From positions 4,882 to 68,881 of the forward strand of contig JADFYW010000009.1 of assembly GCA_015232855.1 (NCBI GenBank): a DNA stretch of 64,000 nucleotides. The letters run 5' to 3'. The notes beneath the pieces are model-generated. The model saw only the letters and a program-made list of their open reading frames with translations. It was not told the origin of the DNA and made no database searches. The position numbers and the translations under genes were made by a program. The first letter of the stretch is position 1. Every line of letters starts with the position of its first letter. Positions 2,478 to 41,289 of this stretch are shown one piece after another. The DNA is from Fibrobacteria bacterium. GTDB lineage: Bacteria > Fibrobacterota > Fibrobacteria > UBA11236 > JADFYW01.

Positions 2478-2487
2478 TGAGCATGTA

Positions 2488-4626: not shown

Positions 4627-6390
4627 ATGACCAATTCATTAACAATATTATTATTGCTTGTAACAATCGTTAACAGCATATACGCACAATATCCTAAATA
4701 CTCTGGCACTGAACGTCCGGAATGTGTTGACCTTCAGGATAGTGATTTTAAAATGACGACTTTGTTTAAATTTAAAGATGATCCCTCTTTAAAAGAGCCC
4801 ATGCGCATGGATTTTTATCAGGACGATTCCGGTAATGTAAACGTTTACTTTATAGAAAGATACGGAAAACTCAAATATTATGATGCGAGGACCAAAAAAC
4901 TTTCATTAGTTGGTAGGCTCGATGTGGTTGCCTCTGGCAACGATGAGGCTGGTCTCATTGGTATGGCCCTTGATCCGGACTTTAAAAACAATAGACTGGT
5001 TTATTTTTATTGGACCCCTGTGGCCCCAAGTGTTTATCGTTTGTCCCGGTTTAAAGTACTAGGCGATTCCAATAAACTTGATCTCACCTCAGAAAAAGTA
5101 ATAATTGATATTCCTGATACACGCATTGGCGCAGGCGGAACAAAAGGAGGATATTTCCATAACGGGGGCTCACTCTTTTTTGATAATAAGGGAGACCTTT
5201 GGTGGACCATTGGTGAACACGACCACTGTAATGCCATTCCAGAAATTTATCATAACACTACAGACAAAGAGTGTAGTGGCGAAGATAATTCGAGTGATGC
5301 CCATTCATGGTATGGAAGTATCGTGAGAATTCACCCGGAATCAGATGGGTCGTACACTATTCCAGATAATAACTTTGGTGAATTTTGGAGTGAAAAATTT
5401 GCAGAAGAGGGGAGGATGACTTTGTCTCAGAAATACACGGATACTTCCTTGGTGAGACCAGAAATATATGCTAAAGGTTTCAGAAATCCTATGTCTGTGT
5501 CGGTGGATCCTGTCACTGGTTGGGCGGCTGTTTCTGAATGTGGTGCACAATGCCATAAAGTAGATCCTGCTTATTACTGCCCGACTGATGGTCTATCAGA
5601 AAAGCATATGCTGATTACAGAGCCAAGTTTTCAGGGTTGGCCTTATTTTCATGGTAATAATCATCCTTTTGCTATGAATGCAAGTGATGAGAAAAATGCA
5701 TTGAAACCTGTTAATAATTCACCTTTCAACCAGGGTGTTGATACGCTTCCCCCGGCCATACCGGGTACCTATGTATACGGTGCTCCGAAATGGGGTGATA
5801 ATATCTGCTCAGTAGGTGGCACATTTTTTCGATATAACTGGGAAAATCCCTCAGATATATCCTTGCCACCTCATTTTGATGGCGTTATGATCTCTTCTGA
5901 TTTAAATACCGGCTGGAAAAGGGCTATTGAAATAGATTCTGCAACGGGAGACTTCGTCAAGGTCAGTCCGGATTTATGGACCTCTCTCCTTGATACTACC
6001 ATAAATGCTGATTTAGGTAAAGAAGCAGGAAATGTTATGGATTTACGGCATGGTCCTGATGGTGCCTTGTATTTGTTGAACTATTCACAAATGCAATACT
6101 TACCAGATAAAACCACTGGGCTGTATAGAATCGAATATCATGGGGACTGCAGAATTACTCCTGTAAAGCGCTATACCCCAAAACAGCGAAATGTTATAAA
6201 GGCAGGATTTATTGATGTACAAGGTGAATACAGAGCTGAATTTTTTAAAATTAATGGCCAGAAAGTGTATACTTTCAATGGCTTTGACAAAGAAAAACTT
6301 CCGTTAGACCATCTTCCTTCATCAGGTTTATACAAAGTGAGAATTTCTACTAATAACATAATTGTTAATAGTGTTTTCATGAAAATGTAA
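4627..6390 (+). CDS. Secreted glucose/sorbosone dehydrogenase-like beta-propeller with T9SS-like CTD, paralog 2
   Basis: 587 aa and collinear with 2488..4248; roughly 70-80 percent identical by eye. It has the same motif set, a GAGGTG Shine-Dalgarno before the ATG, a signal peptide (..VNSIYAQ) and a C-terminal sorting-domain-like tail. Confidence 0.7.
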   Translation: MTNSLTILLLLVTIVNSIYAQYPKYSGTERPECVDLQDSDFKMTTLFKFKDDPSLKEPMRMDFYQDDSGNVNVYFIERYGKLKYYDARTKKLSLVGRLDVVASGNDEAGLIGMALDPDFKNNRLVYFYWTPVAPSVYRLSRFKVLGDSNKLDLTSEKVIIDIPDTRIGAGGTKGGYFHNGGSLFFDNKGDLWWTIGEHDHCNAIPEIYHNTTDKECSGEDNSSDAHSWYGSIVRIHPESDGSYTIPDNNFGEFWSEKFAEEGRMTLSQKYTDTSLVRPEIYAKGFRNPMSVSVDPVTGWAAVSECGAQCHKVDPAYYCPTDGLSEKHMLITEPSFQGWPYFHGNNHPFAMNASDEKNALKPVNNSPFNQGVDTLPPAIPGTYVYGAPKWGDNICSVGGTFFRYNWENPSDISLPPHFDGVMISSDLNTGWKRAIEIDSATGDFVKVSPDLWTSLLDTTINADLGKEAGNVMDLRHGPDGALYLLNYSQMQYLPDKTTGLYRIEYHGDCRITPVKRYTPKQRNVIKAGFIDVQGEYRAEFFKINGQKVYTFNGFDKEKLPLDHLPSSGLYKVRISTNNIIVNSVFMKM

Positions 6391-6404
6391 GCAAAGGAGT
6401 ATTT

Positions 6405-7748
6405 ATGATAAATAAAACATTGATTGGTATCATATTTATAATTGGATTATGGAGTAATACATTGGCCCAACTTGTCCCCGACCTTCTCAATTGGGATGGT
6501 TCGTATGATGACCTTATTACTTTGCCTCCATTACTGTCTCAAACAGGCTTTGATCCAGCACAAACAAATGTTTTTGTTCCTTATAAGGTGAATGTTCCCC
6601 AATATAAAAATCTCATGTATGCAAAAAGATACGTCTCTGTACCAGCAGGTACTACAATAATTCCGGGTGATAGTTTGAACTACCAATATCCTGTAGGTAC
6701 TACTTTTATTCGGGAAATATTTATGGATAGAGAGTATGGAAACCCTTCTACGCAAATTAAGGTTGAAGTCCAAATGCAAATAAGAACCACCCAGGAAAAA
6801 TGGGCACGAGTTAACTATTCTTACACCGCAGGTAGTAGTGACGCCATGTTGATTGATGGGTATTATGGCTACGTTGATACCGTGTATTCAATAAATGTCA
6901 AAGGTAAAAATCTTCCCTATGCAACTACCACAGGCACTACGGTGGAGAAGGTGTCCTTTCCCTATTTCCGGTTGGCAGGGGATTGTGAGCAATGCCATTG
7001 GGATAGTTCGCCCAATGGTTTTATTACGCAACAGTTAAACATGGAAAATCAGCTTCAAACATTAGTAGATAAAAAAGTGCTTTCTGCAGTGCCTGATGTA
7101 AATCAAATACAAGCTAAAGGCATGGTCGTTGATTGGAAGGAGAAAAAAGATACAGCTGCTAGTCTTTATAAAAGGGTCTTATCATATTTGGGGGCTAACT
7201 GTGGTCACTGTCATTCTTCCATGCAGGAGCGATTTATTTCTGGAAAGGTTTCTGAATTAGAATATTTTCGTCATCCTTCAAGTCCTATACCTCCTTTTAT
7301 GGTAAATGATACACTTGAATCAGAAATATTATTTAAAATTGGCAGGCCAGATAGCTCAATGGCCATCATGAGAATGCTGGATGGCACCATGCCTGCTGGA
7401 GAAGTTTCCCTACCTGATGTAATCGGTATTAAAATGATGTGGGATTGGGTAAATGGCCTGGATAATAATGCTGCCAATGATGTTCCCTGGGAAGATGTTG
7501 TCTTATCAACGAAAGATGTTTCTAAGAATAGTTCTCAGCGTAGATTTTCTGCTTCTTATGATAATGGACTTATTCGATTAAACGGTACCCGTTCGATAAA
7601 GTCCCCGGTTAGTCTTTATTCTATAAAGGGTCGTAATATTCAGGTACAGAAATTGCCCAATGGGAATTTCTCTGTAACTGAGAAATTATCTCCGGGTGTT
7701 TATTTTGTAAAGCGGGACACGGACATATCTTTACTATCGGTATATTAG
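6405..7748 (+). CDS. Secreted di-haem c-type cytochrome-like protein with T9SS-like CTD
   Basis: Signal peptide. Two CxxCH motifs: CEQCH at nt 6984..6998 and CGHCH at nt 7200..7214. The overall layout reminds me of the SO_2930-type dihaem family, but that is recollection only. The C-terminal ~80 aa (..LSPGVYFVKRDTDISLLSVY) resemble a T9SS CTD. AAGGAG lies before the ATG. Confidence 0.6.
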   Translation: MINKTLIGIIFIIGLWSNTLAQLVPDLLNWDGSYDDLITLPPLLSQTGFDPAQTNVFVPYKVNVPQYKNLMYAKRYVSVPAGTTIIPGDSLNYQYPVGTTFIREIFMDREYGNPSTQIKVEVQMQIRTTQEKWARVNYSYTAGSSDAMLIDGYYGYVDTVYSINVKGKNLPYATTTGTTVEKVSFPYFRLAGDCEQCHWDSSPNGFITQQLNMENQLQTLVDKKVLSAVPDVNQIQAKGMVVDWKEKKDTAASLYKRVLSYLGANCGHCHSSMQERFISGKVSELEYFRHPSSPIPPFMVNDTLESEILFKIGRPDSSMAIMRMLDGTMPAGEVSLPDVIGIKMMWDWVNGLDNNAANDVPWEDVVLSTKDVSKNSSQRRFSASYDNGLIRLNGTRSIKSPVSLYSIKGRNIQVQKLPNGNFSVTEKLSPGVYFVKRDTDISLLSVY

Positions 7749-11598: not shown

Positions 11599-12528
11599 TT
11601 ACAGACTTATTCCCGTCTTCTTTAGGATTGTCATTGGCCCGATATCTGAAATAATCTGAATTTCCTCTTTATTCTTTGCCAGCAGCCCTCCGGCAAAGCC
11701 CAGAGCATTAACTGAGATGGTTTTAACACATTCTACAGACCGTGGAACAAGGAAAATCCATTTTCTGGTAACAAGGAGATTGTATGGCCCGGTATGACTG
11801 GCGTCCTCTTTGTCTGATTTTTTATTAAGACGGGTTTTCTGTAACATCTCACGGTAGAGAGCATAGAGCCTGTCGGCAGCGTCCTCTGCCATAGCTGATA
11901 ACGGAATGCCATGGTATGCAAAACAGTGTTTGAAAGGAAGAGAAGAAATTTGAAGCATTGCTCCCGGTGAGCCATCGGTAGGAAAAAGAACGCAAAGAGG
12001 TACAGAAGATACTTCTTCTGACATGCCAAGAGGTATGAGTTGTAGATGTTTATGGGCCTGACTGGCCCCGGCAATTTCTCCGCCGTTATAGAAGCCCAGT
12101 CCGTCAAACTCGTTCAGGCAAAGCCAAAGCGCTGCAAAGTCTTTTCGGTTGAGCAGCGTATTTTGGTGTTCGAATTCCCGGGTAACTATTAATAGATGAT
12201 TGTCTATTACTTTGAATTTATTAAGAAGACAAAGATGGGTATTGCTGATACCTGACACGAACATATCTTCTTCATAAGGTAAAAATGGATTATGCACCGG
12301 CGAATGGGAATTGACATTTTTTTTGTTTTCGGCAAGTTTGATCCTGCTCTTTGCTTTTTCGGCCAGGCTGGATATGGTTCTCAAAACAAATCGGACACCA
12401 CCATCTTCAATGAAACTCTCAAACGTATCAATTGATAGTAATGCTCCTGATTTTTGGGCCTTGTCCATTGCTTCTTTGGCCAGGGAAAGTAATGAGCCTG
12501 GAATAAGAACCTGATTTTCTGTCTGCAT
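11599..12528 (-). CDS. ATP adenylyltransferase / Ap4A phosphorylase (APA1/APA2-like, GalT/HIT-related)
   Basis: NPFLPYEEDMFV, LLNKFKVIDNHLLIVTREFEHQ and YNGGEIAGASQAHKHLQLIPL carry the H-x-H-x-Q signature of this family. Confidence 0.6.
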   Translation of the reverse strand: MQTENQVLIPGSLLSLAKEAMDKAQKSGALLSIDTFESFIEDGGVRFVLRTISSLAEKAKSRIKLAENKKNVNSHSPVHNPFLPYEEDMFVSGISNTHLCLLNKFKVIDNHLLIVTREFEHQNTLLNRKDFAALWLCLNEFDGLGFYNGGEIAGASQAHKHLQLIPLGMSEEVSSVPLCVLFPTDGSPGAMLQISSLPFKHCFAYHGIPLSAMAEDAADRLYALYREMLQKTRLNKKSDKEDASHTGPYNLLVTRKWIFLVPRSVECVKTISVNALGFAGGLLAKNKEEIQIISDIGPMTILKKTGISL

Positions 12529-12630
12529 TATTAAAAGATAATAATTTGAAACGCCGGTATCTTTGCGCGTTATTCCTGAATTATCTATATCTATTGTAAT
12601 GGCTACTATTCAATAAAAACTAATGAGACA

Positions 12631-12841
12631 ATGTCATTAAGTTAAGAGTATTGCAAAGAATAAAAAGCTAAAACCAAGTCATTCCGGCTTGTCCGGAATC
12701 AAAAGCATCGCATAAATGAAACGATTATTATTAAAAAACGAACAAACCAAAACAATATTATCTTATGAGTTTCTATTGTTTGGATTCCAGACAAGCTGGA
12801 ATGACTGGTTTTGAGACAGATGTTACTTAATTTAATGACAT
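12631..12841. repeat. Long composite palindrome in a divergent intergenic region
   Basis: Outer arms ATGTCATTAAGTTAAG (12631..12646) and CTTAATTTAATGACAT (12826..12841). Inner 23-nt arms GTCATTCCGGCTTGTCCGGAATC (12678..12700) and GATTCCAGACAAGCTGGAATGAC (12783..12805). Confidence 0.7.
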
Positions 12842-12883
12842 TGACTAACGAGATTCTAATTAATAACCGGGAAGAACATTGTT

Positions 12884-13672
12884 TTGAAAAAAAAGATCCT
12901 ACTCTCCATTCATGATATCCATAATGGCAATTACCAGGCCATAGAATCCTTTTTGCAAAATCTGCCGGAAGAGGTCAGGCCGGTAACAGCTCTTGCTATA
13001 GTCCCCCGGTACCACGATACAAAACCACTTCCTGAACAAAAAGAATTCTGTACCTGGCTTAAAGAACAAGCCGGACAGGGAAGTGAATTATTTATCCATG
13101 GCCTCCACCACCTGAGCTGGGAGCAGCTCTCAAAACGCCTTAAAGCGAAAGACATAAAACCTGCCTGTGGTATACGGAATCATCGTAATGCACGGGGGAA
13201 ATTCATAAACAAGTTTGTAACGGAAAATGAAGCGGAACTCTGTGGACTTGAAGAACCGGGAAAAATGGCAATTATAAAACGGGCGGTTTCTGATTTTAAT
13301 GATGCAGGTGTTCCTTTTAAAGGGTTTATCGCTCCCACCTGGTATGGTACGCCTTTGCAACATTCAGCTTTGCGCAAACAAGGCATTTCAATACTGGAAA
13401 GTCGATTTTCTGTTAGCCATTTATTGCGCCACAAAACCGTATTTGCGCCACCGGTTTCTTTTCCCACACCCGGGTCTCCACTTTTTCATGCGGCCAGGGC
13501 AGTTAATAATCTGTATACACTCTCGGTTCAAAATATATTACCGGTCTCGCGTATAGCTCTTCATCCTGCTGACTTGTCTTCCTTTTCGGTAAAGCATATC
13601 CCTGGTTATCCGGATGCAATTTGCTTTAAAACCTATTCGGAAATATTCGGAATTGAAACTAGGGGCAATTAG
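12884..13672 (+). CDS. DUF2334 / polysaccharide-deacetylase-like protein
   Basis: TTG start. The N-terminal ILLSIHDI.. motif and the overall size resemble the DUF2334 predicted deacetylases. This is weak, by-eye evidence only. Confidence 0.4.
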   Translation: MKKKILLSIHDIHNGNYQAIESFLQNLPEEVRPVTALAIVPRYHDTKPLPEQKEFCTWLKEQAGQGSELFIHGLHHLSWEQLSKRLKAKDIKPACGIRNHRNARGKFINKFVTENEAELCGLEEPGKMAIIKRAVSDFNDAGVPFKGFIAPTWYGTPLQHSALRKQGISILESRFSVSHLLRHKTVFAPPVSFPTPGSPLFHAARAVNNLYTLSVQNILPVSRIALHPADLSSFSVKHIPGYPDAICFKTYSEIFGIETRGN

Positions 13673-15035
13673 ACAACACTTCTCCGGGAGTGGCTTTTGG
13701 TAAGGAGCCGTCTCCAGCTAGTTCTGTCTGACACCAGTTGTTTCCGTTAAAAGTTTTCCCGATTCCATCTACATGCAGAGAATTGACGATGTCATCATCA
13801 ATAAAGATGGAATCCGCGTCATCTGATGTGTATGAGGTATACGCAATTGAATCAATAACCGTATTGGCCTGGGTAACTTTATTACAGATGATCATAAGCT
13901 GAGACTTGGTATTGGTAATGGTAAATCTATCATTGGATATAAACTCATCTTTAACCGCTACATTTGAGTCCCCAAATACCAGTACTGCACCTGGAAGTAG
14001 TTGTAATCCTTCGCCCAGACGAAACCAGGTGGTAGGAGCATCGGTAGATGTTGATTTCCCAATACGGCAACTGTCAAGCTCCAGCGTATCAATTGAACGA
14101 TTGTAAATTTCTATCCACTCTCCTTCTCCCTCACCTGTGCCGGGATCCGCACAAAATTCTGTAAAGATGATGTCCGTTGGGTCCGGTTCCCTTTTAACAG
14201 CGTTTGTGTAGGATACGCCAAAACTTACTGCAGGGTCTTCTGGTAAGGTTATCGTTAATGAAATTTTCCCCAACACATTATCGAGTTGTAGGGCAAAATG
14301 GTGTGCAGTTCCTTTTTCTACCAAAACCGAGTCTGTGGTAAGCTCTTTAAATTTTAACTTGCCGTCTGCAAGAAAAAGAGAACAACTCACTGCGTATTTA
14401 TACCCCCCTTTGAGGTTGTCCAGGGTAAATTTTCCTAATTCGGAACCTACCAGTTCAAGCTCAGCTCTGTAGACATCTGTGGAGCCGCTTAAATAAAATA
14501 CTCCGCTGTCTACACCTGCACCAAGCTGAAAGGCAAAAGAAACGTTTGAAAATATTGGAGTACTATTAATGGTTACCGCAGCTTCCTGCCCCTGGATTAT
14601 TTCAATCCCGTTTTTTTGTCCTTCATAGATAAGCACTCCGGTGCTGTCGTATATCCACAGCTCTAAAAGCTTGTTTGTACCGGGATAAATGTCATCCACC
14701 CGAACCGTAGTATTGGTGCCTTTAATGCCCCAGGATTGTACGGGGGTGTTATCGGTAGAGGTCAATGATATATACATAGAATCGATAGTTCTTAAGGCTG
14801 TTTCTGATTTTTTACTGAGCCCTGAGAGCTCATCCCAGTTAATGCCCGCATTTTCACTGTATTTTTCTTTCAACTCTTGTTTGACGATAGTAAGTGACAA
14901 GGTGCCGGAGGCATCGCTGGTATCATTCACACGTTCATTTTCCAGGCTGTTTTGTGTGCAGCCAGATACGAGGTATAATATTGATAAAATGGCGAGGTGA
15001 AAATAAATATTGGCTAGTATTGTTTTTACTTTCAT
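13659..15035 (-). CDS. Lipoprotein with C-terminal lamin-tail (LTD) domain
   Basis: Lipobox (LVSGC). The C-terminal region IIFTEFCADPGTGEGEGEWIEIYNRS..LVFGDS matches the LTD pattern (I.E...NP......EWIELYN). Its 3' end overlaps the convergent gene by 14 nt. Confidence 0.5.
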   Translation of the reverse strand: MKVKTILANIYFHLAILSILYLVSGCTQNSLENERVNDTSDASGTLSLTIVKQELKEKYSENAGINWDELSGLSKKSETALRTIDSMYISLTSTDNTPVQSWGIKGTNTTVRVDDIYPGTNKLLELWIYDSTGVLIYEGQKNGIEIIQGQEAAVTINSTPIFSNVSFAFQLGAGVDSGVFYLSGSTDVYRAELELVGSELGKFTLDNLKGGYKYAVSCSLFLADGKLKFKELTTDSVLVEKGTAHHFALQLDNVLGKISLTITLPEDPAVSFGVSYTNAVKREPDPTDIIFTEFCADPGTGEGEGEWIEIYNRSIDTLELDSCRIGKSTSTDAPTTWFRLGEGLQLLPGAVLVFGDSNVAVKDEFISNDRFTITNTKSQLMIICNKVTQANTVIDSIAYTSYTSDDADSIFIDDDIVNSLHVDGIGKTFNGNNWCQTELAGDGSLPKATPGEVLSNCP

Positions 15036-15158: not shown

Positions 15159-17093
15159 TTATATATCCTCCAGTGTTAGTTTTGAGTCATTAATGGTATT
15201 AAGTAATCTGATATCCGGAACAATTCGTTTCATCCGGGCCTGATCCAGCAATACTTTGTGCATGGTCAGTTTACGAGTAAACAAATAACGGCCCTCCTCG
15301 TTTTTTGTTTCACATTTTACGGTAAACAGTGAGTTTGATACATCGGTACACGAAATATCAAAATCAACTTTTTTATCAGTAGGGAGGATAAACTCAACAC
15401 TTTCTTCCAAATCAGTTTCAAACCCATTATACACTTTTGTTATACGAGTAGTGTCATAGGTCGTCAAATACGCATTAAAAATATGGGACAGACGAAACTG
15501 GGTTTTCCCCTTTCGGCTGATAACCTGTTGGCTATTACTAAACGTTATACTGGACTTAAGTGCCTTGCCTCTGTCATTCAAGGTTTCCAAATTATGGGTC
15601 TTTAACCGGTTAGATGTTCCTAATTCAGATATATATTTTTGGAAAACCTCCGCTATATCCTTTTTCTCCATATCAAGAAAGGAATTTCGTTTTTGGTAAG
15701 CAAATACACCTCCGTATTCCAGATTGATTTTAATTTCAGAATCTCCAAGCTCATCAGGAGTAAGATCTACTATAACATGTTGCTTTTTGTAAGAAGGGCC
15801 GGAAGCGCTTGGAGGTAACATACGCGGCATTCCGGTTTTAAGCGAAAGAGCAGGTAAATCAAAAAAATTCAAAGGATATTCACCCAGTTTTGCACCCCGG
15901 GAATAGGGAAATACAAGGTATTCTTTATTAAAAATGGTGACAGAAACAAGTGGGACCGACAAGACGGCTGGCGTTATAAAGTGCATATCAAAACCGCCAT
16001 AACTATGGGGGCGTGTTACATAAATTTGGGGATCTAGCTTGATATGCTTAAACATCTCTGATAAAATAACAGCCATTTCCCAAAGGTTCCCCTTACCATT
16101 TTTTATAACTTTATCCGGGTTTATCGGGTTCATTCGGGAATGGACATAGCTGATGTTTTCCTGTACCCAATGAAAGATGGCGTCAGCTTTTACATACTGA
16201 GATTTAAAGGGAGCGGTAATTTCATCAACTTTGTTTCGTAGTTTACTTGTTGATTTAAAAAAGGACTGTTTCAAAAGAATGTTTTTATATCCTTCTGTTA
16301 AGTCTTCCCAGCTATTTATTGCATCCATCTGTCCGTACATACCACTGGTCTGATAAGAACGCATAACAAGCGAGACCCGTGGTTCGGTAACATCAATACC
16401 TTGTTGATAACGTAACCGGCTGCGGGGAAGAACCTGTTGTTTATTCCAAATGTAATAGTCAAGATTTTTTTTATTAGGTACAGGCTTTTTTTGATGGCGG
16501 TTAATAGCACCATAACTATTAAATGCATAATTATATTTGGAAAGCGCAGATAAGGTAAATCTTGCGTGTTTGACAGGTATTGGTTGAGAAAAATAATGTT
16601 CCAGAAACATAAGGGGTGATTGGGTGGATGATTCGATTAGTATTTCAATCTCACATCCTTTGGTTACTCTGGGGATAATCACTTTTCCTTCTTTTTTGTA
16701 CATTGATTTTAATTTTGCAACCGGAACAGGAATTTGAATATTATTAGAATCTCTTACAATTACATTAAATTTCTTTATAAACCTGGAATAAACCGGTATT
16801 TTCAGTGAACCGTACTGGGCACCATCATTTGTTAATATTTTAATTTTTTTATTAATGATATACCGGGTTACCGGGTTTGAAGTCAACGGTGTGGTCAGGT
16901 AACTTGTTTCAATAAAAAGTTCATCCACATTATAATAAGCCCCATATGATTTCCATTTGTCCTGCATGGCCCTGGAAACCTTGTCACCGGTAAGAAGATT
17001 TGGTTTGGACATGGGTGCACATCCTGAAAGTAACAGGAAAGAAAATAACGCAACTAAAACAAGAAGTCGTTTATTCATAATTATTTTTTCCAT
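15159..17093 (-). CDS. DUF3857/transglutaminase-like lipoprotein paralog with a degenerate active site
   Basis: Lipobox (LLSGC). It has the same length and architecture as the upstream gene. Where that gene has the catalytic GDC, this one has GKGNLWEM, with no Cys. Confidence 0.5.
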   Translation of the reverse strand: MEKIIMNKRLLVLVALFSFLLLSGCAPMSKPNLLTGDKVSRAMQDKWKSYGAYYNVDELFIETSYLTTPLTSNPVTRYIINKKIKILTNDGAQYGSLKIPVYSRFIKKFNVIVRDSNNIQIPVPVAKLKSMYKKEGKVIIPRVTKGCEIEILIESSTQSPLMFLEHYFSQPIPVKHARFTLSALSKYNYAFNSYGAINRHQKKPVPNKKNLDYYIWNKQQVLPRSRLRYQQGIDVTEPRVSLVMRSYQTSGMYGQMDAINSWEDLTEGYKNILLKQSFFKSTSKLRNKVDEITAPFKSQYVKADAIFHWVQENISYVHSRMNPINPDKVIKNGKGNLWEMAVILSEMFKHIKLDPQIYVTRPHSYGGFDMHFITPAVLSVPLVSVTIFNKEYLVFPYSRGAKLGEYPLNFFDLPALSLKTGMPRMLPPSASGPSYKKQHVIVDLTPDELGDSEIKINLEYGGVFAYQKRNSFLDMEKKDIAEVFQKYISELGTSNRLKTHNLETLNDRGKALKSSITFSNSQQVISRKGKTQFRLSHIFNAYLTTYDTTRITKVYNGFETDLEESVEFILPTDKKVDFDISCTDVSNSLFTVKCETKNEEGRYLFTRKLTMHKVLLDQARMKRIVPDIRLLNTINDSKLTLEDI

Positions 17094-18982
17094 ATTCGGG
17101 CATTTGAGAATTTCTTCCGAATTTTAAAATAAGAGACCAGGCTTTCCCGGTTATCATTTTGAATATTTGTCCGCATGTTGATAAACTGGCGGGAAATAAT
17201 ATTTTTGTTTTGTTGCCACTTTCCCGTTGCAATAGCATGGTCAATATTTGTTAGTTCGAAATCAGTGAAACCGGGAGGCAGTTGCCAGCTATCATACTGT
17301 TCGATAGCTTCAAAAAAACGGGGCCCTTCACGTTCCAGAGTGGTATAGCGTACCTGACCGCCAAAAAGAGAGGGGCTTTCGAGTACAAACCCACCTTTAT
17401 CCATATCGACATAAGCCTTATTAAAATTGGCCTTATACTGAATTTTGATATAATCACTTGTTAATTTAATTACCGAAGAAGAGAGCGTATTCAGGTTGAA
17501 ATAGTCTTTGAGCATATCAGTCAAAAAGGGCTTTTTTTCTTCTTGATTCAGGTCATTTATTATGGGTAATATCCTGAACGCAGCCATACCGAAAAGTTCA
17601 ATATTACCGGACAGCTGCCATTTTACAGTGCCGGTCCCTGGCTGTATTGACGACTGCGTAATAATTTTATTAAGGAACTTGTCGCCAGCATCTATTACAG
17701 TGGTATGCGTATTTCCCGGTTTAATCAGCAGAGCTTTTTGGCCATGTATATGAAGAAAAGAGCTTGCAGGATTACCAAAATTAACCGTTGGGTCGATATA
17801 TCTTGTGAGACCTTTGGAATCTTTATAAGAAAGCAGCATATGGTTAAATGATCCGAGGCTTGGATAGTTTTCCATGAGTTGAAAATTACTTTTGGTAATG
17901 GTGAGAGCCAGATTTGTCTCTATTCCTTTTTCTCTAAGCAGCACCTTAAGCAGGGAAGACATTTCTTTGCAGTCTCCGTATCCCCGGTTAATAATCAGCT
18001 TTGCCGGACGTGGCATGATAGCATATATTTTCTTTTCATCCGCATGGTACCTGACTTTTTGCCGAAGTAACAGGAAAGCTTCTTTGATTATGGAATCCCT
18101 GTTTGAGGATTTGATATTTGCAGCGATGTCAATTATTTCCCTGGAAGGTTCAAAAGCCTGAGATATCATCCCCAGGTAATAGTCCCCCAGCTGTTTCCAG
18201 GTAAAAGAAATTTCTCCGGACGGCGGAAGACTCATATGGAGACTGGCATACCATTCTTCAGGCTTTACGAGCCTGTTGTAGTCATCTATTTTCAGAAGAT
18301 TTTTGGCAGTATATTCGTAATTTATCTCATTTTCGTCCTCTGTTATCACCGTATCTACATCAAGTTTTTCGTTATTCAAAAAACCGAATCGAATACGGTA
18401 ATTTTTAGGTACGGAAAATTTTATGCTCCGGTTAACTACATTATACATGTCCCTCATAACGACCTGGTTATAAAACTCCGGGCGAAAATAATAACGCGTT
18501 ACCACCAGACGCAGGATAAGTTTTTCCTGATATTTTGGTATATCTACATACTGCACCCATCTATTGGATTCATAAATTTCATTTTCTTTTGTCCGGAATC
18601 GTTTGATGGCCATGGGACGTGCTTGCCAGGATTTGTTATCCGGATAAAAAGCATAAAGCTGGATGGTTGGTTTATATTCAATGGTTTCATAGTCATTAAC
18701 AAAAATTCTCTCAAACAGATTGGGATTTCGCTGGGCCACATATATGTATGATATATTTCGAACGCACAGTACTTTTTTCTGCATCCTGGTACTGAAAAAG
18801 ATATGAGTTGAGTCTTTTAATTTTACAGCGGTTTCATCTTTCCATTTGGCAGGGATAGAGGCTACCAGTTTTTGCATTTCCTGATTATCTGATTTTTTTA
18901 CTGGAATTGCACAAGAAAACAACCCAAAACAAACCATATAAAACAAGAGCATATTTTTAATAAATAACTTCATAATTCGCAA
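17081..18982 (-). CDS. DUF3857 + transglutaminase-like cysteine protease-fold lipoprotein
   Basis: Lipobox (LFSC). RGYGDCKEMSSLLKVLLREKGIE is the transglutaminase core Cys, followed by FNHMLLSY..YIDPT (His and Asp). Confidence 0.65.
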   Translation of the reverse strand: MRIMKLFIKNMLLFYMVCFGLFSCAIPVKKSDNQEMQKLVASIPAKWKDETAVKLKDSTHIFFSTRMQKKVLCVRNISYIYVAQRNPNLFERIFVNDYETIEYKPTIQLYAFYPDNKSWQARPMAIKRFRTKENEIYESNRWVQYVDIPKYQEKLILRLVVTRYYFRPEFYNQVVMRDMYNVVNRSIKFSVPKNYRIRFGFLNNEKLDVDTVITEDENEINYEYTAKNLLKIDDYNRLVKPEEWYASLHMSLPPSGEISFTWKQLGDYYLGMISQAFEPSREIIDIAANIKSSNRDSIIKEAFLLLRQKVRYHADEKKIYAIMPRPAKLIINRGYGDCKEMSSLLKVLLREKGIETNLALTITKSNFQLMENYPSLGSFNHMLLSYKDSKGLTRYIDPTVNFGNPASSFLHIHGQKALLIKPGNTHTTVIDAGDKFLNKIITQSSIQPGTGTVKWQLSGNIELFGMAAFRILPIINDLNQEEKKPFLTDMLKDYFNLNTLSSSVIKLTSDYIKIQYKANFNKAYVDMDKGGFVLESPSLFGGQVRYTTLEREGPRFFEAIEQYDSWQLPPGFTDFELTNIDHAIATGKWQQNKNIISRQFINMRTNIQNDNRESLVSYFKIRKKFSNARIWKK

Positions 18983-19107
18983 TAAAAGTAATAATTTTAA
19001 TACAATAAATTGGCAAAAACAAATTTTCTAAGAAAATATTAATTCCTGAGTTATTTATTATTTTCAACCAAAGTCTCTCTCATAAAAAGGAAAAACCTCC
19101 TGGAGAA

Positions 19108-19683
19108 TTGAACTTGAATAATTCCATGCTATGGATCGGTATACTGCCTGTTATTGCTTTTCTGATTCTTGATTCGTATACCGACAAAAAGAAAGCTCTG
19201 TTAGGGGCTATAGTTCTCGGATTGGGAGAGTTTATTTTTACCCTTATTCAATTTGGTTCGATAGATTACCTCACGGTTCTAACGTTGTTATTACTTCTCG
19301 TTTTTGTTGGAATTTCTCTTAAAACCAATAATGATTTTTATTTTAAAATTCAGAGTGCAGTGGTAAATATCATTCTTGCTTTGATTTTAATCGTCAGTCA
19401 ATATCTGTTCGGAAAGTTCATTTTGTTGGATGGGTTTATTAAATACGTAGGGATTAACTTTTTTGCAAAGTATAATCCTGCCATAACAAAAGAAATCACT
19501 ATTCAGTTGCTGGAGGCACTTAATACCCAGCTTCCCTGGTGGCTTTTCATTCATTCAGCCTTAACGATATATGCTGCCGCTAAATGGAATAAATGGTTGT
19601 GGGCAATTATCCGCATTCCGGGATTATATATATTTCTATTTTTCGTTATGAAAAATATTGCAGCGGGTATTTTACCGAAGTAG
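19108..19683 (+). CDS. Polytopic inner-membrane protein, YciB/IspZ (intracellular septation protein A)-like
   Basis: About five predicted TM helices. The central segment NNDFYFKIQSAVVNIILALILIVSQYLFGK resembles E. coli YciB [27 protein letters not shown]. The start is uncertain (TTG at 19108 or ATG at 19126). Confidence 0.4.
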   Translation: MNLNNSMLWIGILPVIAFLILDSYTDKKKALLGAIVLGLGEFIFTLIQFGSIDYLTVLTLLLLLVFVGISLKTNNDFYFKIQSAVVNIILALILIVSQYLFGKFILLDGFIKYVGINFFAKYNPAITKEITIQLLEALNTQLPWWLFIHSALTIYAAAKWNKWLWAIIRIPGLYIFLFFVMKNIAAGILPK

Positions 19684-19699
19684 CTTTGAAGAGTATATC

Positions 19700-21436
19700 A
19701 TGGATAAAACAAAAAAGTATTATGATGAAGAAATGCGCTATCTTGAAAAAGAAGGCGCGCGTTTTGCTGAGGCTTTCCCAGAAAGCGCTGCCCGGCTGCA
19801 CTTAAATTCTCCTGGAGACCGGGACCCTGATGTAGAACGATTACTGGAAGGTTTTGCCTTCCTTACCGGGCGCATAAGGGAGCAACTCGATGATGACTTT
19901 TCAGATGTTGCCGCAAATATGCTGGAACATACTGCTCCGGAATTTCTCCGACAGGTTCCATCTCTTGCTATGCTTCAATTTCAGCCTCGTCCGGGTATGC
20001 TACACAAAAGCTACACTATTCCCCGGCATACGGTTGTTCTTTCAAATCCTACTGGAAAGGAACTGCGAACTTGCCGATTTCAAACGACTCGTGAAGTAAC
20101 CGTGCACCCACTATCCCTTGTTCATGCCGGAAAGACCCATCATTCTGAAAAAGGAACGGGAATAGTACTTACTTTTTTGTGTGAAGCAGAATCAGGAAAC
20201 GCCTTGTTTGAAACAGATTTGTTGCCACTATTTATCCATGCAGAACGTTCCATTTCCTGGCGCCTCCATTATCTGTTAAACCGGATGGTCAAAGAGGTAG
20301 AGATTCAAACAGAAACATCAGATATTCCCTTAACCGGAAAGGCAAGACCTGCTTTTTTTGGTGCAGGATATTCTGAGAGTGAACGCTTATTTCCCAATAC
20401 TCCCAACAGCCCCGAAAACAGCCGTCTGTTGCACGAATTTTTCTCTTTTGAAGAAAAATTCAGATTCCTGGAAATGAAGGGTTGGTGTCATTTGAGGGGT
20501 AAACTGGTCAAAAATAAAATCAGTCTTTGTTTTTATTTCAGTGATGCTGCAGCCTCTCTTCTTGAGAACACACCAGTGCAGACGGATATGTTTAAGCTGT
20601 ATACGACGCCAGTAATTAATGTTTATGAAAGTCAGGCTGAACCTGTTCGGCATGACCATTCCCGGTTTGAATATCCGGTCATCGCAAAAGCAGGATATCC
20701 CGATGAAGTATATGCTATTAAAGAGGTAAAGAGCATTAACCCTCAGTCGGGTAAGGAGATAAACTATCGAAAAATGTATGCGCCCGGGAGTCGGGTGCCA
20801 GCGGAAAAAAATAGTGATACTTACTATACTGTGCGACGGGAGCATATAAAAGACAGCGGTTATCAGTCGTTTGTCTCGCTCAATGGCGGACATCCGGAAG
20901 AGGAACTGATATCTTTTGGTATTTACACGACTAATGCGGACTTTCCCCGGGAAAATATTAATGAGGGAGATATTTGTAATCCGGTGTCTGGGTTTCCCGA
21001 CTTTATTCGCTTTGAGAACATAACGCGCCCGACGGCAACCTGCTATCCCCCTAAACCTTCCGGCTACTTATGGAGTTTAATTGCGCACTTTCGCATGAAC
21101 CTTAAAACATTATGTCAAAAAGAAAATTTTTGTAATGTCCTTCAATTATATGATTGGGCCCATTCAAATTCTGTGAAGCGCATTAACCAAAAGCTGACAG
21201 GCCTTTCCCTGGCTTCAGATACTTTCTTTCTTAAGGGTCAGTTGTTACGAGGAGCACGTATTTCTATTACGCTACAAGATAATGCCTTTGAGGATGCTGG
21301 TGAATTGAATGTGTTGGGTGAGGTTTTGCATCGGTTTTTTTCTGGATATGCGTCTATTAATTGCGCTATTGCTCTTGATATCAAATTGGAGCCATCCGGC
21401 GATCTTCATTCCTGGTTACCAGAGGAGAATGGGTGA
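19700..21436 (+). CDS. tssF: Type VI secretion system baseplate subunit TssF (ImpG/VasA family)
   Basis: The N-terminus is canonical for TssF: YYDEEMRYLEKEGARFAEAFPESAARLHL....DPDVERLLEGFAFLTGRIREQLDDDFSDV..L..T.PEFLRQVPS. At about 578 aa the size fits. I chose the ATG at 19700 over the track start at 19658, which overlaps the upstream gene. Confidence 0.85.
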   Translation: MDKTKKYYDEEMRYLEKEGARFAEAFPESAARLHLNSPGDRDPDVERLLEGFAFLTGRIREQLDDDFSDVAANMLEHTAPEFLRQVPSLAMLQFQPRPGMLHKSYTIPRHTVVLSNPTGKELRTCRFQTTREVTVHPLSLVHAGKTHHSEKGTGIVLTFLCEAESGNALFETDLLPLFIHAERSISWRLHYLLNRMVKEVEIQTETSDIPLTGKARPAFFGAGYSESERLFPNTPNSPENSRLLHEFFSFEEKFRFLEMKGWCHLRGKLVKNKISLCFYFSDAAASLLENTPVQTDMFKLYTTPVINVYESQAEPVRHDHSRFEYPVIAKAGYPDEVYAIKEVKSINPQSGKEINYRKMYAPGSRVPAEKNSDTYYTVRREHIKDSGYQSFVSLNGGHPEEELISFGIYTTNADFPRENINEGDICNPVSGFPDFIRFENITRPTATCYPPKPSGYLWSLIAHFRMNLKTLCQKENFCNVLQLYDWAHSNSVKRINQKLTGLSLASDTFFLKGQLLRGARISITLQDNAFEDAGELNVLGEVLHRFFSGYASINCAIALDIKLEPSGDLHSWLPEENG

Positions 21437-22404
21437 GGCTTTCGGTAAAAAAGAGACTTTTTTCTCAGGGATGGGAGTTTAGTTTTTTCCAGGCAGTAGC
21501 ACTGCTTGAACATTTTTATGGTGATATTCAAAAGCCCGATAGCCCTGTGCGTTTTTCCACGAGCCCCTCAATTGCTTTTCCGTCTTCTGATATATCAGCT
21601 ATAGAACAGCACCGGGAATGCATCCGGCTTATTTCGGATTTTTCTGGTCTTTATGGGGTATCTTCTCCTTTGCCCTCTTATTTTACTACTCCCGTATGCC
21701 AGAACAATAAAACGGGACAGATGCTCCGGGCTTTTTATGACCTCTTTAGCCACCGTCTCTATCAGCTACTCTATCTTGCCTGGAAAAAAGGCCGGATTTT
21801 TCCTATGCGTAATGGACACGCCGATATGGTGTCCTCCTCTTTATATGCACTTTCGGGCCGGGGTCTCAGACTTAAGCAAAATGGAGAGAGCCAATCTTCA
21901 CCTATGAGTGAATGGAATCAAATTTTTTTCACAGGATTTTATTTTCAGCGTAATGGCTCTGCTCAAAACCTTGCAAAATTAATTTCTTTGGTATTCGATC
22001 TTCCCCGGGTTTCGATTTCCCAATTTACATCCAGATGGATACAAAATCCCAGACGGATGAGATTAGGGGATATCTCCGGAAAGCTTGGACAAGGATATTT
22101 TCTTGGCGAGAGAATTAAAGACAACACAGGTGCTTTTACCATTATCATTGGACCGTTGGATTATGCCCAGGCAAAAGGATTCTTGCCGCAACAAGCATCG
22201 TCAACTATGCGTTCCCGATACCGTGAACTGTTAGAATTGGTTGATGGGTTTTTGCAAGAGCCCCTTGACTATAGCATAACTTTTCTCCTGGATCTGGAAA
22301 AAGCACCAAGACCTGTATTGGGTGCAGATTCTACCTTATTGGGCCAGACTGCCTGGTTGGGAAAACCAACGGGCAAAACAATGAAAGTAGAAATTAAGCG
22401 CTAA
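21433..22404 (+). CDS. tssG: Type VI secretion system baseplate subunit TssG (ImpH/VasB family)
   Basis: The GTG start overlaps the tssF stop (GTGA). FSFFQAVALLEH, VRFSTSPSIAFPSSDI, SPLPSYF and FYDLFSHRLYQLLYLAWKK match TssG hallmarks. 323 aa. Confidence 0.8.
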   Translation: MRLSVKKRLFSQGWEFSFFQAVALLEHFYGDIQKPDSPVRFSTSPSIAFPSSDISAIEQHRECIRLISDFSGLYGVSSPLPSYFTTPVCQNNKTGQMLRAFYDLFSHRLYQLLYLAWKKGRIFPMRNGHADMVSSSLYALSGRGLRLKQNGESQSSPMSEWNQIFFTGFYFQRNGSAQNLAKLISLVFDLPRVSISQFTSRWIQNPRRMRLGDISGKLGQGYFLGERIKDNTGAFTIIIGPLDYAQAKGFLPQQASSTMRSRYRELLELVDGFLQEPLDYSITFLLDLEKAPRPVLGADSTLLGQTAWLGKPTGKTMKVEIKR

Positions 22405-22489
22405 ACCCCCCTTTTTAACCTAAAAATAACTTATGATTTTATATACTAGTTAACTTGCCAGTCAGGAATTTTTCAAAATACTTAAAAAA

Positions 22490-22567
22490 GTTCATTCCGA
22501 CTTGTTCGGAATCAAGCATTTTTAAGTATTTTGTCCATTTAGCAGATTCCGGGCAAGCCGGAATGAC
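22490..22567. repeat. Palindromic intergenic element (GTTCATTCCGACTTGTTCGGAATC ... GATTCCGGGCAAGCCGGAATGAC)
   Basis: Inverted 23-24-nt arms. There is also a flanking AAAATACTTAAAAA / TTTTTAAGTATTTT inverted pair. Confidence 0.65.
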
Positions 22568-22626: not shown

Positions 22627-23733
22627 ATGCTCAACTACATTTCACTAGCTCTGTCTCTTTTTTATGCAGGAACATTATTTTATCTGATTATTGGTGCGGT
22701 CAGGCTGTACCGAAAACACTCAACAAGCAGAAAAAAACCTTTTATTTCGATTATTGTGCCATTGCGAAATGAAGGAAAGGGAGCTCAGGCCACTTTGGAT
22801 GCTTTAGCTGTTCAGGACTACAAAGGGGAATGGGAAGTGATTTGCGTAAATGATCGCTCCACAGATAAGACTGGCGCAATTCTTAAACAAATGGCCAAAG
22901 TAGATAACCATTTTAAAATTATAGAAATTGGCCAGGACGAACCTCATGTGACCTCTCCCAAAAAACGGGCCCTGCAACGGGGCTTTGACAATGCTTCCGG
23001 CGAAATATTTATCACAACGGATGGCGATTGCGTTCCCCAGCCGGGCTGGCTCACTTCCATGGCAAAAAACTTTACTGCGCCCATTGGTATTGTCCAGGGT
23101 TCTAAACGCATTGCCCGGGCTGATAACCTGCTTACCAAATTTCAGGAGATAGAAACTCTTGCCTATGTAAGCGTAGAAGCTGCTTCGTTTGCTCTGGGAA
23201 AGCCCATGCTTGCCAGTGCTCCTTCCCTGGCGTATCGGAGGACTCTCTATGAAGAGGCGGGTGGTTTTGATGGTATGGAGCATCTGGTGTCAGGGGATGA
23301 TGATATGCTGGTACACAAGATGCAGCAATCGGGGAATTACGAAGTAAGATACAATGTTGACCCTGAGGCTTGCGTACGTACCCAGCCGGCGAATACCTGG
23401 AAGGAAATGCTTCTGCAGCGTGCCCGGTGGGCCAGCAACGGCCTGCATTATGAGAGCCGGTGGTTTGTGCTGTTTCTGATATGTCTTTTTTCGTATTATG
23501 TAATGGTTGTTGCAGGTCCTTTTCTGGTAATCACCGGGTTGTTACGATGGGAGCTTTTTGTATTTTCTTTGGCTGTAAAATTTATTCTGGATCATATATT
23601 TGTTTTTCGCATCACCAAAAAACTATTTGGTCGCAGAGCTCTTTTGAATCTCTGGTGGGCGGAATTTTTACATTATCCTATTATTGTATTTTCGGTTATT
23701 ACCGGCCATCTTGGCTTGTATAAGTGGAAATAA
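22627..23733 (+). CDS. Family-2 glycosyltransferase, membrane-bound, processive type (QxxRW)
   Basis: N-terminal TM, SIIVPLRNE, TDGDC, GDDDML and QRARW, followed by about three C-terminal TM helices. Confidence 0.75.
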   Translation: MLNYISLALSLFYAGTLFYLIIGAVRLYRKHSTSRKKPFISIIVPLRNEGKGAQATLDALAVQDYKGEWEVICVNDRSTDKTGAILKQMAKVDNHFKIIEIGQDEPHVTSPKKRALQRGFDNASGEIFITTDGDCVPQPGWLTSMAKNFTAPIGIVQGSKRIARADNLLTKFQEIETLAYVSVEAASFALGKPMLASAPSLAYRRTLYEEAGGFDGMEHLVSGDDDMLVHKMQQSGNYEVRYNVDPEACVRTQPANTWKEMLLQRARWASNGLHYESRWFVLFLICLFSYYVMVVAGPFLVITGLLRWELFVFSLAVKFILDHIFVFRITKKLFGRRALLNLWWAEFLHYPIIVFSVITGHLGLYKWK

Positions 23734-23830: not shown

Positions 23831-26281
23831 TTATTTATTTCTACGTCGTTGCAAGTCTGTCTGGCTGCTTTCGAGTTTGATATCAGGTATATCTATAACC
23901 GAGATATTAAAACGCCAGCCCTTGCCGATACCCACAGGGGTCCAGCTGAAGTTCATGCGCCAGCAATGAAGGACACGGTTGAATACCATGGAGTGCTTCG
24001 AAAACTTACCTTCCTTGAAATCATAAGCCGTGTTGTAGGAAAACTCCCACTTGGGAGTGGGATTAAGTTTGAGACCACCGGAGAATGAATGCGTGAGGTT
24101 TTTTTGAAAAATAGTTTCACTTTTTCGGGTTGCGCTGTAGTTGAACCCATAACTCATATCCGCCGACCAGGGTCTGGTTTGAAACTGCCTGTTTGATTTA
24201 GTTTTGATGTCTTCTTTTAACATGCCCGAATTAAAGTCTCCGGAGAAGCTAAAATTTTTACGCCAGCTGAAATTGTAAGACATCAGTTTGGGGAAAATAA
24301 TATCATTTTTCCGAGGGGCAGTGACGAAGTCATTATAAAGCCGATGAGTCAAATTAATGTTAAGGGGAATGTGCTTCACAATTTCAGAGCTTACATTGGA
24401 ACTGATATCAGAGAATTTTCGGTCTTCTGCTTCAAAATTATAGTTGAGGCTACTACTGGTGGAAAATATCTTGTAGCTGACAGACTTTGTCTTCTCCCCT
24501 GATGTATCTTTGGGTATGAGCTTAATATCAACAATATTGGAAATACCCATGTTTATGGTTTTTTGTTTTATCTGGCTTCTGGATCCCCCCAGAGTAGGAT
24601 GGGGTACATAGGTTTTGTTTTCAGGAATTTTAGGTGCCCAGGTAAATCCTAAAGTAGGAGATACCACATGGCGTATTTTTTCCCACCGTCCCAGTCGGGG
24701 CTCTGCGATACCATAAAGCTTGGTGTTGGCGCTTACTCCTGACTGAAATGTATACACATTATCGCCCATACGAAATTCAGATGGCTGAAAATCAGCTTTT
24801 GGGGATCCGTCTTTACCTATACTGGAATGCAGGTTCCAGTTATGTTGGAAATTTGCTGAGGGTGTTACATTAATATGTTGAAGTACGGGGTAATTAAGTT
24901 GCATGCTTAGTTTATTACTGGCACCAACAGAAGTCATAGAATCACCTGCAGCGCCAGAGGTTGCGGCCGGGTTGTTTTTAGTGTACACACTAAAATCACC
25001 ACCATAGTTATAAGTAATTTTGCGATATAGGGGTATTTCCTCTTCTTCTAAGTCCTGGTTGGCCCAGTAGTCGTCTTCTTCATAGGGAAATAATGGCGCC
25101 GTGAAAGCAAAACTGGCTTTGGGCAATTCCCATATTCGCTTTCCGGAGGTAAGGTTGTAATCCTGCATGGTACTAATATTCACCCGGGCGCGGTTCCAGT
25201 CTAGTGTATTCGTATAACCAAGCCTTGCGTTGGCTGTTTGTTCCAGGGCCTCTTTCTCGTCTAATGCCTCATCTAATATCTTGCTGTTTGAAACAAAGGT
25301 GCCATTTCCTGTTAATTTCTGTATGCCGTCGGGGGTGAGGTTCTGATCATGAGAGAAGTTTACTTTCCAGCCGGAGTTTCCCGGGTTGAATTCGCTCATA
25401 TAGGCATCACCACCCAGGGAACCCGTGAGTACTCCCCGCTTGTTGTATCTATACAAGCCCCTCAGGTTAGTTTTGTCAAAGGTGCCGTTTGCCCCTTCTA
25501 TTAAATCACCAGTCATTTGGTAATCCATAAAATCATTCATACTCCAGTAATAGCCGATATCCCGCATATAAAAACCCTGGGCCTGGTCGCCGCCCCATTT
25601 TGGCCTGGTAAAACCTGATCGCCGTCCCTTACCCAGTGGCACCACCAGCATAGGGGCAACAGCCACAGGTACACCGCTGATATTCATCACCACTGGCCTC
25701 GCCAGCACTTTTTTGCCTGGTTCAAGTACCATACGCCTGCTGTAAAAAAAGAAGTGCTGGTCTTCCAAATTATCACAGGTAGAAAAGTCACCACGTGATA
25801 TGAAAATAGCACCGGATTTCTGTTTGCGCACTTCCATACCATTAAACATCTGTTTGTCCCGTCTGGTGGTTCCATAATAAATCTCGCCAACTTCACGTTT
25901 GTGGTTATACCGGAGACGGTATCCAAGTATTTCGGGCTGGGTATTTTCACGTATCCTGGGAGTGCCAAAGGCTTCCACCATTTCGTTTTTATTGTCCAGA
26001 AAAATAGTGTCGGAATGAAGTGTCGCACCTTTATAGGTAAGTATTGCCTTATCAAACAAAGAAAATTTTTCTTTTTGAGCATTAAAAGAAAAGAAATCAC
26101 TTTCCCAGGAAATAGTATCGCCTGCAATAACAGAAGCTGAATCTGCTGTTGAATCTACACTGGAAGCGGTGGTATCTGTAATCGTATCTGAGAGTGCCAG
26201 CTTAAACAGTTCTTCTGCAGCTGAAAAGGAGACAAAAAACAGGACGGAAATGAGAAAAAACCGTATGGGAAAAAAATTCAT
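23831..26281 (-). CDS. lptD: LptD/OstA-like outer-membrane LPS-assembly protein
   Basis: 816 aa with a signal peptide. The N-terminal segment is OstA-like (FSLFDKAILTYKGATLHSDTIFLDNKNEMVEAFGTPRI). The long C-terminal region is rich in beta-strands and aromatic residues. Confidence 0.55.
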   Translation of the reverse strand: MNFFPIRFFLISVLFFVSFSAAEELFKLALSDTITDTTASSVDSTADSASVIAGDTISWESDFFSFNAQKEKFSLFDKAILTYKGATLHSDTIFLDNKNEMVEAFGTPRIRENTQPEILGYRLRYNHKREVGEIYYGTTRRDKQMFNGMEVRKQKSGAIFISRGDFSTCDNLEDQHFFFYSRRMVLEPGKKVLARPVVMNISGVPVAVAPMLVVPLGKGRRSGFTRPKWGGDQAQGFYMRDIGYYWSMNDFMDYQMTGDLIEGANGTFDKTNLRGLYRYNKRGVLTGSLGGDAYMSEFNPGNSGWKVNFSHDQNLTPDGIQKLTGNGTFVSNSKILDEALDEKEALEQTANARLGYTNTLDWNRARVNISTMQDYNLTSGKRIWELPKASFAFTAPLFPYEEDDYWANQDLEEEEIPLYRKITYNYGGDFSVYTKNNPAATSGAAGDSMTSVGASNKLSMQLNYPVLQHINVTPSANFQHNWNLHSSIGKDGSPKADFQPSEFRMGDNVYTFQSGVSANTKLYGIAEPRLGRWEKIRHVVSPTLGFTWAPKIPENKTYVPHPTLGGSRSQIKQKTINMGISNIVDIKLIPKDTSGEKTKSVSYKIFSTSSSLNYNFEAEDRKFSDISSNVSSEIVKHIPLNINLTHRLYNDFVTAPRKNDIIFPKLMSYNFSWRKNFSFSGDFNSGMLKEDIKTKSNRQFQTRPWSADMSYGFNYSATRKSETIFQKNLTHSFSGGLKLNPTPKWEFSYNTAYDFKEGKFSKHSMVFNRVLHCWRMNFSWTPVGIGKGWRFNISVIDIPDIKLESSQTDLQRRRNK

Positions 26282-26318: not shown

Positions 26319-26615
26319 TTACATAAGTTTCAGGCGCTCTTCGGGGGTCAGCAAGGTAACCAGCCTGACGCCAAAGTTATCATCAATAATGACGACTTCT
26401 CCCTTGGCAATAACCTTGTTATTAACCACAAAATCAACTGTCTCTCCCGCAAGTCGCCCTAATTCAACTACTTTACCTGTTTTTAATTCTAAAAGCTCCC
26501 TTATTTTAAGTTTTGAATCTCCTAAAATAAGACGAATAGGCAGTTTGATATCCTGAAGGTTTTCAATATCCAGTTTTTTTCGGTTAGAAGCAGTGTATTT
26601 AATATTTTGGGTCAT
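26319..26615 (-). CDS. FliN/SpoA-domain protein (flagellar switch / T3SS sorting-platform C-ring fold)
   Basis: 98 aa. IKLPIRLILGDSKLKIRELLELKTGKVVELGRLAGETVDFVVNNKVIAKGEVVIIDDNFGVRLVTLL is a near-consensus FliN C-terminal (SpoA) domain. Confidence 0.8.
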   Translation of the reverse strand: MTQNIKYTASNRKKLDIENLQDIKLPIRLILGDSKLKIRELLELKTGKVVELGRLAGETVDFVVNNKVIAKGEVVIIDDNFGVRLVTLLTPEERLKLM

Positions 26616-41130: not shown

Positions 41131-41205
41131 GGGCGCTTAGCTCAGTTGGTTTAGAGCACCTGCCTTACAAGCAGGGGGTCGTAAGTTCAAATCTTACATC
41201 GCCCA
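41131..41205 (+). tRNA. tRNA-Val (anticodon UAC)
   Basis: I folded the cloverleaf by hand: acceptor GGGCGCT/ATCGCCC (one C6-U67 mismatch), D arm GCTC/GAGC, anticodon stem CCTGC/GCAGG with loop CTTACAA, T arm GTAAG-TTCAAAT-CTTAC. CCA is not encoded. Confidence 0.85.
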
Positions 41206-41214
41206 AAAGTTTTA

Positions 41215-41289
41215 GGAGTGGTAGCTCAATTTGGTTAGAGTACTAGCCTGTCACGCTAGGGGTTGCGAGTTCAAGTCTCGTCCATTCCG
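41215..41289 (+). tRNA. tRNA-Asp (anticodon GUC)
   Basis: Acceptor GGAGTGG/CCATTCC, anticodon stem CTAGC/GCTAG with loop CTGTCAC, T arm GCGAG-TTCAAGT-CTCGT, discriminator G. CCA is not encoded. Confidence 0.9.

Follow-up and report, generated by a model that had tools for sequence, protein, structure and literature searches.

Why should two genes for the baseplate wedge of a type VI secretion system (T6SS) stand alone on a chromosome? The question is raised by a tssF-tssG pair in a 64-kb stretch of contig JADFYW010000009.1 from a Fibrobacteria bacterium (the whole 64,000-nucleotide stretch is called the window here), for which a first-pass annotation, made from the sequence without database searches, left three options: a split locus, a decaying remnant or the core of a new assembly. 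Of these, the split locus has the best support. We give a probability of about 65% to the pair being a two-gene module that has become detached from a T6SS(i) of the Fibrobacterota type, canonical in other respects, with its genes spread over several loci. The pair itself consists of new, divergent members of the TssF and TssG families, and its detached arrangement is unusual but unsurprising.

An intact and coupled tssF-tssG pair

The first-pass annotation had recognized the open reading frame (ORF) at 19700..21436 (+ strand, 578 aa, ATG start) as tssF and the next, at 21433..22404 (+ strand, 323 aa, GTG start), as tssG, both T6SS baseplate wedge subunits, and searches with all four family models confirm these assignments. 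The NCBIfam equivalog TIGR03359 matched the window TssF with 437.7 bits (cut-off 260.3) over positions 2-592 of its 600, and PF05947 (T6SS_TssF) with 409.8 bits over 3-603 of 608; TssG scored 210.3 bits against the equivalog TIGR03347 (cut-off 143.3; profile positions 2-300 of 300) and 224.6 bits against PF06996 (T6SS_TssG). The tssF frame is intact, the N-termini of both proteins align with those of their homologues, and the two ORFs encode full-length TssF and TssG. A TTG at 19658, in frame upstream, was considered as the tssF start and rejected, the homologue N-termini giving it no support. The GTG start of tssG overlaps the TGA stop of tssF by 4 nt in the sequence GTGA (21433-21436), upholding the translational coupling that had been proposed; such coupling would hold the amounts of TssF and TssG matched.

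Both proteins also match the solved wedge of the enteroaggregative Escherichia coli (EAEC) Sci-1 T6SS (PDB 6GIY, 6GJ1, 6N38). Residues 2-575 of the window TssF align end to end with residues 3-580 of EAEC TssF (6GIY_A; E = 8e-69), and residues 36-292 of the window TssG match EAEC TssG (6GIY_C; E = 2.4e-13). In EAEC the genes belong to a full cluster that includes tssE and tssK, whereas the window genes, adjacent and coupled, have no partner in 64 kb and encode proteins of low identity to the solved ones.

The pair is alone in the window

We examined the isolation of the pair with Pfam searches of 48 ORFs, NCBIfam searches of the ORFs lacking a Pfam match, and a tblastn comparison in which TssA, B, C, E, F, G, K, L, M, Hcp, ClpV and VgrG from five relatives were run against the window. 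The two family scans of the ORFs revealed no T6SS gene beyond tssF and tssG in the 64 kb, and tblastn of the whole window matched these two genes only, the other core queries giving nothing below E = 0.003. By the three approaches together, TssA, B, C, Hcp, E, K, L, M, ClpV and VgrG are all missing from the locus, and the pair is truly alone within 64 kb, as the first reading of the DNA had stated. No similarity to TssE was found anywhere in the window, where the upstream neighbour of tssF is instead a yciB-like gene (19108..19683, + strand).

The wedge core is homologous in architecture to the gp6/gp7/gp53/gp25 wedge of phage T4 and to the baseplates of extracellular contractile injection systems (eCIS; Afp/PVC). 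Pfam families for the sheath, tube, gp25-like and spike proteins of eCIS and phage-tail-like particles were absent from all window ORFs scanned. The window differs from those systems in having none of their sheath, tube or gp25-like genes, and its two proteins match T6SS-specific equivalog models.

T6SS genes seem to be spread over small modules in Fibrobacterota

All near homologues come from metagenome-assembled genomes (MAGs) of Fibrobacterota, and among 5.8 billion proteins no TssF apart from the window protein itself was more than 43% identical to it. The closest relatives are the Fibrobacteria-type clusters of GCA_025360005.1 (locus L001), GCA_043732185.1 (L003) and JGI Ga0452212_121898 (L098), with TssF 39-43% and TssG 32-34% identical. 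They share with the window the order tssF then tssG in overlapping frames; unlike the window, they have hcp-tssE and tssK-L-M-A-B-C before tssF, a TssG that is 60 aa longer and an overlap of 16 nt rather than 4. Relatives at large overlap tssF and tssG by 13-37 nt, mostly 13-16. The tssF-tssG genes end the cluster in the closest clade (L001, L003, L007), and therefore one breakpoint between tssE and tssF detaches them.

How firmly tssF is tied to its neighbours can be read from 19 Fibrobacterota tssF loci. The first-pass annotation had placed tssF and tssG inside clusters, and this stands insofar as tssE lies directly upstream of tssF in 18 of the 19, with 17 of those also adjoining sheath and tube genes. 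As a rule it is too strong. The exception, a Chitinispirillia MAG (L038), reads hcp-tssF-tssG with no room for tssE, and in a Chitinivibrionales MAG (GCA_014728215.1, L095) the set tssE-tssF-tssG-clpV stands by itself amid housekeeping genes, lpxB and a radical-SAM gene being two of them. Among the TssC loci, taken as the best 80 of at least 600 matches in the genome-contig collection, a four-gene tssA-tssB-tssC-hcp module occurs in at least 19 species-representative genomes, the majority of them from Chitinivibrionia (L021, L022, L024-L033, L040-L042, L047, L048, L055, L058). No tssE, F, G, K, L, M, clpV or vgrG was found in the fetched flanks of these modules, which comprised the full 10 kb on both sides in 8 of 19 loci. 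The L095 module and the bare tssA-B-C-hcp modules resemble the window in having baseplate apart from sheath and tube genes, amid housekeeping genes; L095 retains tssE and clpV, whereas the window has tssF-tssG only.

Division of this kind is compatible with function in Neisseria, whose T6SS-A and T6SS-Bi are functional with core genes over two or three loci, one of them tssM-tssA-tssF-tssG-tssJ-tssE (PMC10210955). The core is split there as proposed for the window, but in another phylum and subtype and into larger modules. The T6SS of Fibrobacterota seems to be routinely scattered over small modules, and clustering seems not to be the rule.

Two TssC proteins at 73-74% identity were considered as partners and rejected, one locus having its own tssF-tssG and the other reaching the contig edge, and neighbouring NCBI accession numbers led to no TssF and TssC pair of one MAG. 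A separate observation concerns the Fibrobacteria MAG JACKCV01 (L039), in which two divergent tssF genes lie within 7 kb, at 5832-7514 (-) and 12298-13995 (+); one of the copies is on the opposite strand, upstream of tssB-tssC.

The pair lies at the end of a conserved gene block

Downstream of tssG the window continues with a membrane GT2 glycosyltransferase gene (22627..23733, + strand; Pfam GT2 families), which is context outside the T6SS module and opens the conserved block GT2-LptD-FliN-HK-HDOD-PilZ-PilMNOQ, and with lptD (23831-26281, - strand; Pfam), 1.4 kb from tssG. The nearest LptD relatives are in GCA_042567505.1 (JBHPJW01, L096; 64% identical) and GCA_050294405.1 (JBNKOC01, L097; 57%), and the order PilQ-(SH3)-PilO-PilN-PilM, PilZ, HDOD, histidine kinase, FliN-like, LptD is the same in the window and in both relatives. 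In L097 a GT2 gene follows lptD as it does in the window, its product 53.5% identical. Synteny with the relatives ends exactly in the spacer between tssG and the GT2 gene, at a doublet of elements resembling repetitive extragenic palindromes (REP-like; 22474..22566). In the JBNKOC01 genome a separate contig carries a complete T6SS cluster (L023).

The two parts of the locus differ in their affinities: the window LptD is nearest to JBHPJW01 and JBNKOC01, but TssF is nearer to the L001 clade (41-43% versus 34%). The TssF of JBNKOC01, however, forms a long branch of its own, and the codon usage of tssF is host-like; we draw no conclusion on horizontal transfer of the pair.

The block holds another lone part of a large machine, again with its synteny kept. 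A 98-aa FliN/SpoA-domain protein is encoded beside lptD in the window (26319-26615, -), in L096 (9406-9702) and in L097 (9642-9938); it is 75% identical in both relatives, and the window has no other flagellar or injectisome gene.

TssF and TssG look constrained

The HMM (hidden Markov model) scores of the window proteins fall inside the range of five relatives in T6SS loci (TssF 417.6-509.5 bits, TssG 174.7-242.7 bits). Of 64 alignment columns with at least 90% conservation among 118 homologues, TssF retains 58, and its six departures are for the most part conservative. In a neighbour-joining tree it is sister to the closest Fibrobacteria clade, with a root-to-tip distance of 0.773 against 0.72-0.775 in its clade. 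Judged by these alignments, both proteins look to be under constraint; they keep the conserved columns and the rate of the family, which argues for unchanged partners.

The codon usage of tssF is host-like as well. Its GC content at third codon positions (GC3) stands at 0.381 (window mean 0.361 +/- 0.034), and its codon-usage distance of 0.069 (window mean 0.103) ranks it with the most typical genes; the genomes of the nearest TssF clade have 49-60% GC. The gene looks native, with a long residence in the genome.

These measures bear on the possibility that the pair is a recent remnant, a T6SS having been lost by deletion or rearrangement and tssF-tssG being its last survivors, still intact, functionless and bound to decay. 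Such a history would fit the lack of any further T6SS gene in 64 kb and the absence from the window of tssE, the neighbour of tssF in 18 of 19 related loci; the slightly low retention of conserved columns and the mere 43% identity of the nearest TssF homologue point the same way. We nevertheless consider it improbable, at perhaps one chance in five. Both ORFs are intact over 2.7 kb; since dnaX shows the contig to carry at least one frameshift outside the pair, this is not trivial. The GTGA junction, the homologue-like N-termini and the compact 16-nt upstream junction are all kept, the HMM scores and branch length are in line with those of functional relatives, and tblastn of the window detected no leftover fragments of adjoining T6SS genes.

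A probable detached module of a dispersed T6SS

We therefore return to the detached module. A rearrangement would have parted the terminal tssF-tssG from tssE and the remaining cluster, and the two genes would have landed by the GT2-LptD block, downstream of the yciB-like gene, whose promoter would now probably drive them. By analogy with the EAEC wedge, TssF2-TssG1 heterotrimers would combine with TssE and TssK trimers whose genes lie elsewhere. Around VgrG, six of these wedges would make up the baseplate, and on it the Hcp tube and the TssBC sheath would polymerize. In favour of this reading are the integrity and constraint of the pair, the native look of tssF, the terminal place of tssF-tssG in the clusters of L001, L003 and L007, the scattered modules of the lineage (the at least 19 bare tssA-B-C-hcp loci, L095 and L038), the Neisseria precedent (PMC10210955) and the position of the pair at the exact end of the synteny block common to L096 and L097.

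Several observations weigh against it. In the 64 kb of this organism that were examined, no gene for the sheath, tube, spike, TssE, TssK or membrane complex came to light. A module of tssF-tssG only was met nowhere else, tssE adjoining tssF in 18 of the 19 loci examined. The 58 conserved columns kept by TssF place it in the lowest decile of the homologues (the others have a mean of 61.8, a standard deviation of 2.4 and a minimum of 51). The codon-usage distance of tssG, 0.182, is about 3 standard deviations over the mean for genes longer than 900 nt, with a typical GC3 of 0.387. Finally, spacing is the sole ground for co-transcription of yciB-like gene, tssF and tssG.

If the split-locus reading is true, the window holds an ordinary T6SS baseplate pair, and detection rules built on single loci would miss or mis-score Fibrobacterota T6SSs; one would further have to ask what coordinates several promoters so that assembly stays stoichiometric.

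The upstream yciB-like gene

The gene before tssF encodes an IspA/YciB-like polytopic inner-membrane protein of 191 aa with about five hydrophobic segments. Its description as YciB-like survives on a weak PF04279 match (29.8 bits, just above the cut-off of 28.7); the gene ends 16 nt before the tssF ATG on the same strand. Two NCBIfam models scored below their cut-offs (VC0807_fam, 34.7 bits against 65; TIGR00997 ispZ, 22.5 bits against 165). Its family comprises 217 representatives, the best of them 43% identical, and PF04279 matches 30 of 31 members. On its sequence the protein is assigned to a distant YciB-like family of the ordinary IspA/YciB type and is not an equivalog.

From the spacing, the yciB-like gene is probably co-transcribed with tssF and tssG. 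An AT-rich intergenic region (18983..19107, + strand) separates it from a divergent transglutaminase-like gene and is the putative promoter region of all three genes, with a weak sigma-70-like site at 19010-19037 that matches at 9 of 12 positions. Promoter-like sites were not significantly above background there (16 sites, where shuffled sequence gave 10.9 +/- 4.0). A terminator scan likewise did not rise above background, and no Rfam family was found in 18-24 kb.

The remaining option of the first-pass annotation was an undescribed membrane-associated assembly. The organism would then lack any sheath, tube, spike, TssE and TssK, and TssF-TssG would have been repurposed and selected, for example together with the YciB-like protein, as a stand-alone membrane-associated platform whose role lies outside contractile injection. 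We regard this as very unlikely. The tight same-strand spacing to a polytopic membrane protein and the absence of partners from the window are circumstantial support, and we found no positive evidence for such an assembly: the YciB-like protein belongs to an ordinary family with no known link to T6SS, and the yciB-tssF-tssG order, whose recurrence had been raised as a check, has no second case in the databases searched. If the genome had no other T6SS genes, this would be the first TssF-TssG retained outside a contractile injection system.

A REP-like element at the synteny break

The flanks of the pair are as first described, with a palindromic repeat and a GT2 gene downstream and transglutaminase-like genes on the other strand, by repeat analysis and Pfam. 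The repeat, between tssG and the GT2 gene, contains a 22-nt hairpin unit twice in inverted orientation, at 22492-22513 (+) and 22545-22566 (-), together with a 15-nt perfect inverted repeat (22474-22488 / 22519-22533). The unit, TCATTCCRRCTTGYYYGGAATC, occurs four times in the window, where none is expected, as two inverted doublets, the second at 12679-12700 (+) and 12783-12804 (-). The stems vary with compensatory changes (CCGG/CCGG, CCAG/CTGG, CCGA/TCGG). Between them the doublets enclose a 9.7-kb segment with genes for a DUF2334 protein and an LTD lipoprotein, the two transglutaminase-like genes, the yciB-like gene, tssF and tssG. The only terminator-like call at the element is on the minus strand, and the element may act as a terminator or be the scar of a recombination event.

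With its extended consensus, TGTCATTCCGGCTTGTCCGGAATCTTTC, the unit was matched in at least 120 metagenome contigs, whose GC ranges over 0.34-0.60, again often as inverted pairs, and is therefore widespread and not species-specific; its use as a species-specific probe was dropped for this reason. None of the listed contigs had a T6SS gene or DNA identical to the window, and Rfam gave no match for the unit.

A chimeric contig joined at this repeat, which would make the isolation partly illusory, might be suspected from the coincidence of the synteny break with an element (22474-22566) belonging to a family widespread among metagenomes and from at least one homopolymer frameshift in the contig, but we hold it to be hardly credible. 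The four window copies differ, and what they share exactly is shorter than usual assembly k-mers; GC and codon usage stay uniform from one side of the junction to the other; and a join at 22.5 kb leaves unexplained why tssE, hcp and tssBC are missing upstream of tssF, a side that has no repeat.

Other features of the window

The two DUF3857/transglutaminase genes identified with Pfam occupy 15159-18982 (-). The remaining window is chromosomal housekeeping, including PilMNOQ, AspRS, PhoH, ComEC, NAD kinase, RecN, hemC/D/L, dnaX, RNase P RNA and two tRNAs. The RNase P RNA is of class A (55625-56044, -; 307 bits), and a 108-aa ORF at 55683-56009 (+) is spurious because it overlaps this RNA; tRNA-Val and tRNA-Asp lie at 41131-41289. 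The dnaX gene (60821-61973, -) is broken into two ORFs by a frameshift in a G10 run (61529-61538), and the frame resumes perfectly past …LEEPPP once shifted by one base. Since the gene is essential, an error of sequencing or assembly is the probable cause, which shows that indels do occur in the contig.

Near the start of the window, two tandem paralogues encoding GSDH-domain proteins (2449-4248 and 4627-6390, +) are 73-76% identical in DNA over about 800 nt at a spacing of 2151 nt. They are followed by a gene for a dihaem-cytochrome-like protein with a type IX secretion system (T9SS) sorting tail (6405-7748).

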